Origin: Eledone cirrhosa
Taxonomy: Eukaryota
Reading direction: 5' to 3'
Assembly: GCA_964016885.1 (NCBI GenBank)
Contig: OZ024755.1
Span: forward strand, 3,286,001-3,350,000
DNA length: 64,000 nt
Part shown: in pieces, positions 3,201 through 57,912 of the stretch
How positions within the stretch are numbered: the stretch's first letter is position 1
Layout: each line of letters starts with the position of its first letter
Made by a program: the position numbers and the translations under genes
Notes under the pieces: generated by a model
What the model saw: only the letters and a program-made list of their open reading frames with translations
What the model was told of the DNA's origin: nothing
Database searches by the model: none

Positions 3201-6200
3201 ATATGTATATATAAATGTGGTAAGGAACCAGGTGGACCATAACGCACCAAAGTACTCAATACTTAGGGTAGCAGAGTTGGTAATAGGAATGAGTAGAACC
3301 CCGACGGCTAATTCTGGACGGCTTGAGCTCAGCCGTCGGGGTCCTACTCGTTCCTATATATATATATATATATATATATATATATATATATATATATACA
3401 CAATATTTATGTGTTCTGTGGTTTTAATGCTAGAAACTTGTTGAATGCAATGTTACATTTCTTTCTTATCAGGTAACTTTGGTGTAGCATACAAAGCCCA
3501 GTTTACTAAGTGTGACACTGAGCCACCTATGACTGTTGCTGTCAAGTCTTTACAAGGTAAATTAAATCTATAACAACTCTTACACCTGCAATATATATAT
3601 ACAGTTAAATTCCGGTATAACGAAATTCACGGGGTATAAAAAAATATTGTTGTAACGAAGAATTCTTTATAACAATATTGACCGAAAGAAATCGAGTATT
3701 TGTTTGTTATTACTCTGGGGATTGAAAAAACAATTTGTTATACTGAAAAATTTGTTATAATGGTATTCATTATAACGGAATATTACCTGTATCATCATTT
3801 AATTTCTGCTTTCCCTGCTAGCAAGGGTTTGACAGGTGTACATAGACCAAGTCAGTTCTGAAGAGGAGCTACTGATCTCCCAGACAAGTCAGGATATTAT
3901 TCATGTTACGAAGGGCATCCAGCTGTAGAAATCAAGCCAAAATCAGTTCTGTGTGAGCATGACATGGTCACCTGACCAGACATTTCCCACAACAGGACAA
4001 CTTGTTTAATCTATGCTAGTGTGTAAAAATGGACATAAAACGATGATGATGATGAGATATATATATATATATGTGTGTCTATATATGTCTGATCTTTCAG
4101 TCAACTCATCTATAGATCTATGGATCAATTTCTCTTAAATTGGTATCCTCTCCATTTTCATCTTTAAATCAACTCCACTGTGATCCCTGTATCAACTCCA
4201 CTGTGATCCCTGTATCAACTCCACTGTGATCCCTGTATCAACTTATTCTGTCATTTAATTGCTTAAATATATATTATCATCTATCCCTCGCTTTTCTCTA
4301 GCTTTAGATCAATATTCCATATTCTAATGTAATATTGGCTACTTTCTCTGATCCCTTCTCTTTCAGGTTCCAACACTGATCAGAAGGCGCTACAACAGTT
4401 TCTACGGGATTCACTGGTATTTAAGGAACTCCAACATAACAATGTTCTACCAATAATTGGGGTCTGTCTGACCATTAGTGATGACCCTGTAGTTATTGTA
4501 CCATATATGGAAACAATAGACCTTCGCACACACATTAGGGATTCCAGCAAAGTAAGTGACTATATATATATAAGACCCTCTTCCTGCTATTTCAAGTGTT
4601 AAACTAATATATTCCTTCCATATACTGTACCCCGTTTGTGTTATTATTTCTGTTTCCCTTTGACATATATATATATATATATATAAACATTAGGAAATTT
4701 GAAATTTCAAAATTTAGTTGCCCCAATGTAAATAACTATAATAATAGTTGATATATATAAGGGATTTTTTTCAACTATTATTATATTCATCTGCATTGGG
4801 AGAACTATATTTGATAATTGTTTTTATAATTTGATATATATGTTTTTATAATTTTTAAAATTAGTTTTGATGTACACATTTTTCCAACCTTTTATATATA
4901 TATATCTCACTCTGTTCCTCTTTTGCCAGTCGTTGTCAGTATGTACTCTACTGGACTACGGTCTCCAAGTGGCTGAAGGAATGACCTATTTATCTGAACT
5001 GAAGATCATCCACCACAATTTGTCTGCACGAAACTGTTTGTAAGTACAACTTTAAACACTATTATATATATATATATATATATATATATATATATATTTA
5101 ATTATGTAATAAACAACATAAGACAATTTTTCCATTTACTAAAGGTAAATGGAATAATTGACAGACGACCTCAACACAGATGTCTGAAATTCCTCATCAG
5201 AATAAAAATTTAACAGACGTAAGATAGTTCTGTAGCACATATAGAGCACTCTCCTTTCCTTTACTCTTCCTATGGAAATACTTCATATATATATAATTAT
5301 ATATATATACAATATTAACAAATGGAAACTATATTTATAAAACCATATTTATTTCATTATACATATTTCAAGGACACCAAGTTAAATTATGGTGTGCTTT
5401 CGTCAGACAAAATATAATATAGATCAGTTTTATAAATAAATATTGACATACCCTTTTCTCTCTTTCTCTCTCTCTCCTTCTTTTTCTTTCTCTGTAACCC
5501 AACGGTTTATTTTAAAAATAAAAATATCCAATACTATTAATAATATAAGTAAACAACTCCACTAACCGGGAGCTTCCAACAGTAATGGTTGCATTTTTTA
5601 AGGGTATGTTAATATTTATTTATAAAACTGATCTATATTATATTTTGTCTGACGAAAGCACACCATAATTTAACTTGGTGTCCTTGAAATATGTATCATG
5701 AAATAAATATGGCTTTATAAATATAGTTTCCATTTGTTAATATCGTATGTTTACTCCAAATACTTGTTGAGTGCTTTATATCAGTTATAAAAATATTTGC
5801 TTGTTGTATCCCAACAATTTAAATAGAACTTATATATATATATAAGAAATTAGTATATTTACCAACATATTTATACAGATGTATATTTACGCTAGTAACT
5901 TTGTGGTTTGATACAGAGAGATGTAGAACAATTATATAAAAGATGTAAAATAAGAAAATTATAGTAATAAAGTCATTTACTTAAATATAGGGAGACACAA
6001 AGCAGGCTTGAAAATTAGGTAGTAACATGTGCTTACGCCGTATTTGACTAAATAGAATTAGTTTGTTAGTTGGGATTTTTAAAAAAAACGTCTGAATGGA
6101 AAAAAGGATGAGTTTTGATGTACATGGGACACGAACCCACATCTTTGGTTTGACCACCAACCTTCCCCCGCCTCCCTCACAAACTCTCTCTAGTATCTGT

Positions 6201-56172: not shown

Positions 56173-57912
56173 TTATACTCTGCCATGTATTGAGTACCTT
56201 ACTTACTGTGGTTACCTCCGATTCAACCCGGAATAACGTATATATATATATATATATATATATATATATATGTGTGTGTGTGTGTATGTATATATATATA
56301 TTTAGTCTTCACATTTATTATTACTATGTATATATATATATATATATATGTGTGTGTGTATGTATATATATATATATATTTAGTCTTCACATTTATTATT
56401 ACTATATATATATATGTATATATATATATATGTGTGTGTGTATGTATATATATATATATTTAGTCTTCACATTTATTATTACTATATATATATATGTATA
56501 TATATATATATATATATATATATATATATATATATATACACCTACCCACTCCAATACTTCTCTCTTCTCATACAAAGATCTAAGATACACCATACACGTA
56601 CGTGTGTGTATATATATAGCTTTGTTTCCCTTTCTTTCTCTGTATATGTAAATGTATAATGATGAGAATGTGTGGCATTGTTCAGTTTTCGTGTTATTTT
56701 GGAAGTACTTTTGAGGGATGTCTAGACATTCGATCTTTCATTAAGATACTGTCTTGATTGGAAAAATAGCAATAATAATAATAATAATAATTGTTTCTAC
56801 AGTTGGCACAAGGCCAGCAATTTGAAAGGAAGAGGGGAAAGTCGACTAAATCGACACCAGTACGTTACTGGTACTTTATTTTATCGACCCAGTAAGGATG
56901 TAATAATAATGATAGTAGTAGCAATAGTAGTGATTGTGGTGGTGATGGTCTCAGTTGAGAGTCAGAGAGTCCAGCAAAACATGAGGTCAGACAGGAGTAA
57001 AGGGAGCAAGGTGCGTGTAGGGGGGGGGGGGCGAGACAGAGAAGAGACATTAAACACACACATATACACACACACACACACACACACACACATATATATA
57101 TAGGAGAAAGTAGGACTAGCCCAGAAATAGCCGTCGAAACGGCTTGAGCTCTGTCGTCGGGGTCATACTTTCTCCTATTACCCACTCTATTACCTTAAGT
57201 ATTGAGTACTCTGGTGCGTTATGGTCCATCTGGTTCCTTACCACAACTCCTTCCTTATATATATATATATATATATATATATATATATATATATATATAT
57301 ATATAAACAAATAAATTCCAGACCAGACTAAACAAAAGCAAAACACAGTGGAAAAGTAAGCGTAGCAATGATGTTATCGGGTTTTCCAATCTTTGTCTTT
57401 CTCTCTGTATGTATGAGTGTGTGTGTGTGTATGCCTGTAGGTGTATGTATGTGTGTGGATACCTGCACCTGTATGTATGAGTGTGTGTGTGTGTGTGTAT
57501 GCCTGTAGGTATATGTATGTATGTGGATACCTGTACCTGTATGTATGAGTGTGTGTGTGTGTATGCCTGTAGGTATATGTATGTATGTGGATACCTGTAC
57601 CTGTATGTATGAATGTGTGCGTGTGTGTATATAGGAAAAAGTATAACTCCGACGGCAGAGCTCAAGCTGTCGAAACGGCTTGAGCTCTGCCGTCGGGGTC
57701 ATACTCTACTACCCTTAGTATTGAGTACTCTGGTGCGTTATGGTCCATCTGGTTCCTTACCACAACTCCTTCATATATATATATGCCGAGGTTAACTTTG
57801 CCTTTCATCCTTATGGGGTCGAAAAAATAAAGTACCAGTAATACACTTGGTTATTGCTGGCCTTGTGCCAAAAAAGTAGAAAGTTATATATATATATATA
57901 CACACACACACA

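Follow-up and report, generated by a model that had tools for sequence, protein, structure and literature searches.

The DNA analyzed here, a stretch of 64,000 nt that we call the window, carries many short palindromic units that lie in (TA)n repeats and contain hammerhead-like folds. The question they raise is whether they form a diverse non-coding ribozyme-retroelement superfamily, mobilized in trans by a Penelope-like RT/GIY-YIG enzyme, as the original prediction held. Our analysis indicates that the palindromes are real but mostly ordinary: they are truncated ends of Penelope-like elements (PLEs), as shown for four of seven types and as is likely for the other three.

Short palindromic insertions in the window

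All of the examples named in the original prediction were located at the coordinates given. The catalogue comes to 18 insertions of about 9 sequence types (Table 1), in keeping with the expectation of more than 15 insertions and at least five distinct types; types K and J were entered by eye or by blast. A CTGAAGA...GAAA match at 4999 was discarded as a false positive that resembles a kinase exon, and TTGAGTACC at 34363, which matched no family, was left out. The window also holds a MITE-like family (26472-26867) unlike the palindromic insertions.

Table 1. Catalogue of insertions in the window. The copies at 12735 and 22140 are parts of one duplicated segment.
Type	Position	Strand	Features
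Family A 3′ end with tail	3213..3357	-	Tail-less inverted arm 3318-3357; ribozyme core without 5′ half; full element L311
Family J (B relative), palindromic 3′ end	5097..5297	+	TAGAGCACT tail at 5242; decayed core
Family C	5310..5830	+	Inverted arm without tail, 5310-5455; UTR piece; hammerhead core at 5649 with GAGTGCT tail; both arms with intact core; full element L321
Family A, tail only, very short 3′ end	8308..8375	+	
A-like palindromic 3′ end, old	10010..10166	-	
Family B palindrome	10379..10661	+	Intact core on inverted arm only (minus strand, 10472); tail arm CTGACAA
A-like 3′ end	12735..12830	-	Within segment duplicated at 22062-22227
A-like 3′ end, second copy of duplicated segment	22140..22227	+	Tail cut
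Family E palindrome	33704..33905	-	Two broken cores; TTGAGTACC tail
Family G 3′ end	36286..36450	+	CTGAAGA core at 36290; GAGGGCT-type tail; stem I unconfirmed
Family B palindrome	36451..36693	+	Core on inverted arm only (minus strand, 36545)
Family A palindrome, young	36973..37182	-	Core without 5′ half
Family D palindrome	42050..42252	-	Intact hammerhead on inverted arm (plus strand, 42180; predicted cut after 42216)
Type K, hammerhead-like arm without tail	50568..50640	-	CTGATGA at 50631
Family F palindrome	50644..50964	-	Core CCGATGA; GAGC-type tail
Family E2	56105..56243	+	Inverted arm, intact core (minus strand, 56165), tail joined directly
Family A 3′ end	57104..57258	+	Short inverted remnant
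Family A palindromic 3′ end	57623..57772	+	Internal deletion

Consistent with the proposed embedding in (TA)n, 17/18 insertions have (TA)3 no farther than about 30 nt away on one side or both, and 12/18 have it on both, against a background chance of 0.10 per 30 nt. Among family A copies in flanks, 34 of 35 tail-less ends and 42 of 51 tail ends adjoin (TA)n, the tail ends being scored as TA or CA repeat. The tail motif RYA(TT/TA)GAGYACY occurs 12 times in the window, compared to a mean of 0.42 (maximum, 2) in 60 local dinucleotide shuffles. The GAGYACY tail, said to be common to the types, is indeed found in A, B, D, E, and J, whereas C has GAGTGCT, F has GAGCATT, and G has GAGGGCT.

A strict type I hammerhead descriptor matched the window twice (mean, 0.2, and maximum, 1, in 60 local dinucleotide shuffles). 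Covariation-like pairing had been proposed, and in 8/9 families pairing is kept by different base pairs. With registers set by hand, 4.4/5 stem I positions across the 9 families pair with their own partner, compared to 2.5 with swapped partners, a sum that 0/20,000 permutations attained; family G fails, with 2/5 positions paired. In the families here, the fold is of type I with a UH cleavage triplet at 100-135 nt from the element end; stem III is 3-6 bp long, 15.1-16.1 included, the long stem II frequently has mismatches at its base, and G10.1-C11.1 is retained in only A and F of the 9 families. No hammerhead family was among the 129 Rfam matches to the window at E<=1; these were chiefly microRNA models on TA/CA repeats. 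Across the whole genome, 415,510 candidates for RF00163 led to 74 that were scored, of which 18 passed the cut-off, none of them in the window.

The expected order, a hammerhead followed by a tail in the same sense, is correct for the family consensus but is seen in only 2/18 window copies (C at 5649 and G at 36290). Most window copies are predicted to be unable to cleave, since both core halves are kept in 7/18 and on the tail strand in just these two. Two B copies, D, and E2 have an intact core on the inverted arm only, the K copy has no tail, and the other 11/18 have no intact core. The CUGANGA core predicted for family A is absent from all of its window copies, and 8/8 A-type copies are without the 5′ core half. 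Full-length family A has a UUGANAA (U3-A8) core farther upstream, in place of CUGAUGA at the end of one long uninterrupted stem; it has a 6-bp stem III and is predicted to cleave as a monomer.

Links to RT-nuclease ORFs

In the same genome, A, B, C, and F extend 5′ into long UTRs and then into their own ORFs for RT and a GIY-YIG-type nuclease, and A, B, and C are also found before the ORF, as pseudo-LTRs. The A unit flanks a 648-codon frame at both ends (L311), and locus L321 has the order inverted C, C, ORF, UTR, C. In L173 and L177, B immediately precedes a decayed ORF, and in L171, L075, and L078 it follows the nuclease end; F follows such an end at a distance of about 600 nt in L259 and L260/L323. 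A sister family with the same fold and tail has open 719-codon frames (L180-L183). The pseudo-LTR, an inverted 5′-truncated copy, and a tail at one end were seen in L311, L321, L173, L177, and L186. An ORF upstream of B in L009/L025 belongs to an unrelated LINE and is no link.

The full element reads leader, RT, CxCx5C linker, GIY-YIG-type nuclease, a low-complexity 3′ UTR of 1-1.5 kb, type I hammerhead fold, and AT-rich end. The tail doubles as the start of the next unit's 5′ leader, and the next ATG follows the ribozyme at a distance of about 250-300 nt. The ORF motifs found were RW(K/R), SDKT, YRDD, CxCx5C, Y(I/V)GxT, CxLCxxE, and N..CxH, with YRDD preceding Y(I/V)GxT in the 719-codon frames and in A, B, and C. 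RWK occurs in the 719-codon family and RWR in A and C, and SDKT in all three; RWK and DKT were not seen in the decayed B copy L173, and F is represented by its 3′ part only. The CxCx5C linker and CxH are present in A, B, C, F, and the 719-codon family, and CxxC-E in A, B, and the 719-codon family. ORFs of the other families are 33-65% identical to that of the 719-codon family.

Three ORFs of this genome matched no Pfam family, a PDB sequence search gave no meaningful match, and a homologue search returned 1,670 proteins at E<=1e-30, with no informative names among the matches listed (120 of 1,670). A close homologue, P0002, has a Pfam match to GIY-YIG. The ORFs of A, B, C, and F carry motifs of the Hydra clade of PLEs, and their putative class rests on those motifs; likeness to the Hydra-1_Obim protein was judged by eye. 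What had been predicted is correct in part: a PLE enzyme is the likely mobilizer, and the hammerhead, inverted duplication, and (TA)n target stand, but A, B, C, and F have their own ORFs and do not form a separate non-coding superfamily mobilized in trans.

That leaves the remaining types. For E2, besides L173, 2 distinct loci of 55 (L342; L096/L329) matched the candidate nuclease region, and the UTR of L173 is interrupted; E is tied only circumstantially to an ORF-bearing element. An ORF downstream of E2 in L368 belongs to another element nested in TA repeats, as does one beside D in L166; another beside D in L403 is about 90% identical to the 719-codon family. We counted none of these three as a link. 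Flanks apparently shared by copies of D (L142/L144) and of G (L289/L296/L309) proved to be SINE insertions.

One can envision that D, G, and K are true non-autonomous elements, retrozyme- or SINE-like, that split from a parent PLE and move in trans as short RNAs. None of 20/20 extended D loci has an ORF within about 5 kb upstream, and 30 G loci gave no ORF link. Three D units with intact cores lie head to tail with a 173-bp period (C2:310208820-310209284), B elements have the tail twice, so that tail-bearing units can be decoupled, and PLE-derived retrozymes are described in a recent preprint (bioRxiv 10.64898/2026.07.22.740005). However, the D tandem contains flanking host repeat and resembles a local duplication, and the upstream extension of D is shared, low in complexity, and of the style seen in the B, C, and 719-codon family UTRs. 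Given their age (about 72-95% identity), D and G may have ORFs that are rare or broken, and the architecture of D, G, and K is that of the four ORF-linked types. The non-LTR retrozymes of that preprint are likewise short non-coding type I hammerhead units akin to PLE pseudo-LTRs, and are defined there as tandem repeats in which each unit has a complete ribozyme. Window copies, in contrast, are single or head to head, with no core in 11/18 and the one D triple elsewhere in the genome, and A, B, C, and F lead into ORFs rather than being independent non-coding units. We consider a non-autonomous origin of D, G, and K improbable; for E it is a weak possibility. It is very likely, in our view, that A, B, C, and F are 5′-truncated 3′ ends of coding PLEs, that D, E, G, J, and K probably are too, and that the palindromes were probably made anew at each insertion.

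Copy ends and a model for the palindromes

Copy ends support truncation during copying. Depth summed over independent contig sets is about 6-12 thousand where the ORF begins and climbs to about 2.6 million over the final 110 nt, although contig depth is not copy number and the contigs are of unrecorded kind. Copies end at either of two sites, the base of the small hairpin (tail-less end) or 55-90 nt beyond it (tail end). In family A, 31/35 tail-less arms terminate at -78, and two runs each yielded 56 contigs in which this end is joined to (TA)n. Among the 51 family A copies surveyed, which were encountered by chance in flanks, 2 retain the 5′ core and 27 have no inverted arm. Junctions are distinct in 15/15 palindromes, and arms within one copy differ by 1.8 nt, compared to 4.3 between copies, with 2 misaligned copies left out. 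The short forms thus behave like 5′-truncated, dead-on-arrival copies, created afresh at each insertion. This explanation accounts only in part for the strong clustering of family A 5′ ends between -120 and -142.

Could the short copies instead have been reverse transcribed from the 3′ product of ribozyme cleavage, or from small circles joined at the cut? The conserved type I fold and the position of its UH triplet would suit such an origin, but no copy begins within 3 nt of the predicted cut (0/51 for A, 0/28 for C, and 0/12 for B-like copies), tandem monomers are rare, and ribozyme mutants of an anole PLE still insert (PMC11167929). This origin is very improbable, and predicted cleavage seems dispensable for making short copies. 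We can dismiss MITEs, DNA transposons with the arms as terminal inverted repeats, despite the palindromic shape and TA flanks, given the asymmetric arms with a tail on one side only, the differing centers (15 in 15 A copies), the arm-less A copies, the grading of lengths into UTR and RT ORFs, the different appearance of the window's real MITE-like family, and, for A, B, C, and F, the ORF link, which refutes it.

We imagine that truncated PLE ends become palindromes as follows. By analogy with the anole PLE in vitro (PMC11167929), the element protein may nick both strands of palindromic (TA)n, and reverse transcription may begin at two internal RNA sites flanking the hairpin-GAGYACY motif. Copying would mostly halt after 100-250 nt, often within the ribozyme hairpins, and the two short products would then join head to head. 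Priming by both strands of the cut (TA)n likely accounts for the mirror-image shape; snap-back self-priming would be expected to give equal palindromes.

Relation to known elements and the tail hairpin

The closest known elements are those of the Hydra clade of EN+ PLEs, which includes Hydra-1_Obim of Octopus bimaculoides (Craig et al. 2021, PMC8557442). Both have a GIY-YIG-type nuclease at the C terminus, the motifs RWK/DKT/CxCx5C/CxxC/CxH, (TA)n as target, a type I hammerhead close to the 3′ end, inverted 5′-truncated copies, and a tail at one end only; the supplement of that study reports (TA)n targets in 26/27 families and similar hammerheads in which stem II has U.U at its base. The literature thus already covers TA targeting, hammerheads, inverted copies, tails, and a Hydra element of an octopus. 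Elements here are larger, about 3.5-3.9 kb, because of their long low-complexity 3′ UTRs, compared to generally <3 kb; tails are 55-90 nt rather than 30-40, and pseudo-LTRs are present where none were reported for Hydra-1_Obim. Many families occur here, their stem II is long and frequently mismatched at its base, and the hammerhead listed for Hydra-1_Obim matches no window family by eye.

Metazoan PLE pseudo-LTRs carry minimal hammerheads (Cervera and de la Pena 2014, PMC4209133) that, as here, include dispersed single motifs from truncated PLEs, opposite-strand pairs 100-700 bp apart, many consensus families per genome, and a U3-A8 variant. The hammerhead here is not minimal, owing to its stem III, and G10.1-C11.1 is kept in A and F alone. 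The Poseidon PLE of Anolis carolinensis (Frangieh et al. 2024, PMC11167929) likewise has two element ends bracketing the tail, an AT-rich target, and no ends at the ribozyme cut; it belongs to another clade, and its ORF starts inside the ribozyme, well downstream of which the ATG lies here.

What may be a new feature is the hairpin with GAGYACY, which sits between the two element ends and is common to coral and sea-cucumber Hydra elements: the consensus ends of Hydra-2_Amil, Hydra-1_Ajap, and Hydra-2_Ajap (PMC8557442) have the same hairpin and GAGCACT. No description of it was found in the literature searched, which lacked Repbase and the majority of subscription papers; in the main text of PMC8557442, the words "stem-loop" and "hairpin" each occur 0 times. 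Candidate RT start points are the 5′ base of the hairpin, 17-33 nt before GAG, and a site 40-60 nt past GAG; farther on, 76-130 nt downstream and directly before the ATG, is a second GAGCACT-like copy. We tentatively propose, while leaning slightly to doubt, that the hairpin and GAGYACY are a clade-wide cis element of Hydra PLEs, a loading site for the RT-nuclease that sets both RT starts, and that this genome has among the largest known Hydra radiations. If so, a minimal RNA of about 80 nt would be enough to direct (TA)n insertion.

For repeat annotation, a dense field of seeming non-coding ribozyme elements is here the debris of one known retroelement clade, and in such genomes its pieces could be mislabeled as SINEs, MITEs, or unknown repeats. 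Double-stranded RNA would also be expected within host transcripts, given thousands of short palindromes. The young, near-intact Hydra-clade elements of this genome, with sharp ends and a conserved candidate protein-binding hairpin, provide a substrate for studying the origin of PLE tails and head-to-head inversions.

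Insertions in the window and their surroundings

Every example named in the original prediction was found in the window, and its claim of more than 15 insertions was borne out by a count of 18, made by BLAST with family references and inspection. These are eight A or A-like copies, two of B, and one each of C, D, E, E2, F, G, J, and K, the letters denoting sequence types of short, often palindromic 3′ ends with a hammerhead fold, which belong to Penelope-like elements (PLEs) in A, B, C, and F and probably in the others. As predicted, they are embedded in (TA)n; (TA)3 adjoins 17 of the 18, on both sides in 12, where the chance expectation per 30 nt is 0.10. 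There are 12 tail motifs, compared to a mean of 0.42 across 60 local shuffles, and two sites fit a strict hammerhead descriptor (0.2 in local shuffles). The pattern is real and was well observed.

The hammerhead had been placed on the same strand as the tail, which holds for C and G and fails for all other window copies. Both core halves lie on one strand in 7/18 copies, and on the tail strand in C and G only; the intact core sits on the inverted arm in both B copies, D, and E2, and the 5′ core half is missing from all eight A-type copies. Judged by sequence, most window copies are dead as ribozyme carriers.

The assembly holding the window comprises 3.0 Gb in 1,796 contigs. The window is AT-rich, with abundant (TA)n, and contains C2H2 zinc-finger genes, pieces of RTE-like LINEs, and many SINE copies; together with the resemblance of its elements to a published octopus element, this composition points to an octopod cephalopod. 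The SINE-like family is very abundant and often adjoins or sits within PLE ends. Pieces resembling exons of a receptor tyrosine kinase, possibly a pseudokinase, show atypical catalytic motifs (HHNLSARN, followed by LTDIG and ten further residues), and several elements of 3213-5830 would fall within its introns. A candidate hammerhead at 4999 (CTGAAGA...GAAA) was rejected because it belongs to one of these exons.

Other features of the window
Feature	Position	Strand	Remark
Receptor tyrosine kinase exon-like pieces	1386-1718, ~4930-5040, 6154-6498	+	
C2H2 zinc-finger gene	27283-29571	-	single frame, 762 codons stop to stop
C2H2 zinc-finger gene	42807-44810	-	single frame, 667 codons stop to stop
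MITE-like family, TTAA-CCC...GGG-TTAA ends	26472-26867, 34429-34650, 38528-38764, 51302-51535		presumably piggyBac-like; first copy a head-to-head double
Tandem satellite	~16890-19100		40-bp unit, ~55 near-identical copies
SINE-like family, ~190 bp	10176-10390, 10812-11000, 25839-26180, 30863-31060, 32267-32596, 41002-41481, 58938-59676, more		
RTE-like LINE fragments	12966-13748, 23600-25640		mutual identity 95%
Further repeat family, several hundred bases	16489-16891, 21776-22130, 23044-23334		one copy carries an A-like end, duplicated at 12742-12906

The hammerhead fold across families

The genome was searched with each of types A to G, and 40 candidates were scored per search; first-look candidates numbered 1,268 for A, 2,982 for B, 1,742 for C, 1,617 for D, 3,746 for E, 1,040 for F, and 419 for G, which are not copy numbers. 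Consensus ends were built from 7 to 30 copies per family, with E2 and J represented by single natural copies. Their fold follows the order of a type I hammerhead: stem I, core, stem II, GAAA, stem III, UH, and stem I. The claim that pairing is kept while stems differ was upheld in that stem I pairs with its own partner at 4.4 of 5 positions, versus 2.5 with swapped partners, and the observed sum was reached in 0 of 20,000 permutations, in a test for which registers were set by hand and the families are related. Family G pairs at only 2/5 stem I positions. Pair types vary between families (C-G, U-A, and G-U in stem I; C-G, G-C, A-U, and U-A at 15.3-16.3), and 10.1-11.1 is G-C in A and F only. 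Family A has a 6-bp stem III and a U3-A8 core, UUGAUAA in 30/30 long copies selected with one query, with position 7 variable in other long copies; this variant has been described previously (PMC4209133).

The Rfam check proposed in the original prediction gave no hammerhead match in the window; the length of stem II and the mismatches at its base are the probable reason. Elsewhere in the genome, at least 18 places scored above the Hammerhead_1 threshold, among them an opposite-strand pair at C8:12554784-12555072; these belong to another hammerhead family, absent from the window.

Parent elements and the tail motif

A search for Penelope-like ORFs joined to tail units, as had been suggested, found links for A, B, C, and F. 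On extension, B copies reach nuclease ORF ends, which a UTR links to the tail and ribozyme of B, and a protein search was made with the B-linked nuclease (50,439 candidates, 150 scored). A decayed RT-nuclease ORF lies directly downstream of a B unit in two loci (L173 and L177). In a sister family (L180-L183), the open frames are 719 codons long, with the same kind of fold ~1.2 kb further on and the tail observed in L186 and L190. For A, a 648-codon frame that runs on past its stop is bracketed by family A at both ends and the element ends in (TA)n (L311); for C, the order is inverted C, C, ORF, 1.5-kb UTR, and tail-less C (L321); an F unit lies ~600 nt downstream of the nuclease end at two independent loci. 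In family B (L075 ~8650-8720, L078, and L172-L177), the tail hairpin occurs twice per element: one copy stands ~340 nt past the nuclease stop and lacks a ribozyme, and the other follows the ribozyme.

In L173, a nuclease is followed 2 kb further on by E2, with an interrupted UTR, and the same nuclease region is near E2 in L096/L329 (inverted) and L342; such proximity was seen at 2 distinct loci of 55, versus 0 of 77 control loci. Copies of D share a UTR-like upstream extension, with no ORF in 20 extended loci; for G, 30 loci gave no ORF link, and no RT-nuclease ORF of these elements lies within the window. A separate non-autonomous superfamily, as originally proposed, is not supported for A, B, C, and F, the four traceable types, which run into ORFs.

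These ORFs, which Pfam did not recognize, carry RW(K/R), SDKT, YRDD, CxCx5C, Y(I/V)GxT, CxLCxxE, and N..CxH. The same motifs, together with hammerheads and insertion into (TA)n, define the Hydra clade, among whose listed elements is Hydra-1_Obim of Octopus bimaculoides (PMC8557442). By their motifs, the traceable window types are new families of a known clade. In Octopus vulgaris, 31 PLE families are annotated as recently active (PMC13282606). Truncated PLEs have been described as a source of dispersed hammerheads, with opposite-strand pairs 100-700 bp apart and many families per genome (PMC4209133). Retrozymes, by definition, consist of complete units in tandem (bioRxiv 10.64898/2026.07.22.740005), unlike the window copies.

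A hairpin followed by a GAG(Y/G)(A/G)CY-type motif was present in 8/8 family consensus ends, and, between it and the ATG, a second GAGCACT-like site lies 76-130 nt further on in five junctions of a pseudo-LTR (the end unit preceding the ORF) with the ORF. In the end portions compared, the motif is also visible in three of the six new published Hydra consensus sequences (coral and sea cucumber), and a fourth has a variant. Our literature searches found no description of it, and it may be new; we hypothesize a putative protein-loading site.

Origin of the short palindromes

The A and C copies counted came from sequence flanking loci retrieved with other families and are not randomly sampled. Among tail-bearing A copies, the 5′ core was kept in 2/51, an inverted partner was present in 24/51, and none of the 51 started within 3 nt of the predicted cut. 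Tail-less A arms ended exactly at -78, counted back from the tail end, in 31/35. C copies kept the core in 21/28 and started at the predicted cut in 0/28. For B, D, F, and G, the usual endpoint of the inverted arm is the foot of a small hairpin, 17-25 nt ahead of the tail-motif GAG; ends are more scattered in E. In contig sets from the same organism, depth rises steeply toward the element 3′ end, (TA)n abuts the -78 end, and the tail runs into the 5′ leader.

Self-priming, as proposed for Penelope of Adineta vaga (PMC3846280), may be an alternative route and would yield palindromes of the same kind. The centers of A palindromes were distinct in 15/15, and arms within one copy differed by 1.8 nt, versus 4.3 between copies (two misaligned copies dropped). 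It therefore seems likely from these alignments that the palindromes formed afresh at each insertion from one template rather than being amplified from a short master. For an anole PLE, both target strands are reported to be cut and extended, reverse transcription to start at two internal sites bracketing the tail, and insertion to persist in ribozyme mutants (PMC11167929). We infer that the same two-strand cutting and extension, with two internal starts, would operate here, a mechanism that fits the window palindromes.

PLE hammerheads have low activity even as dimers, according to a review (PMC6765202). At one locus (L325, G000:C2:310208820-310209284), three family D units stand head to tail with a 173-bp period and an intact core in each. 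Since the repeated unit takes in flanking repeat, this looks like a local duplication; the triple would be a natural place for dimer cleavage.
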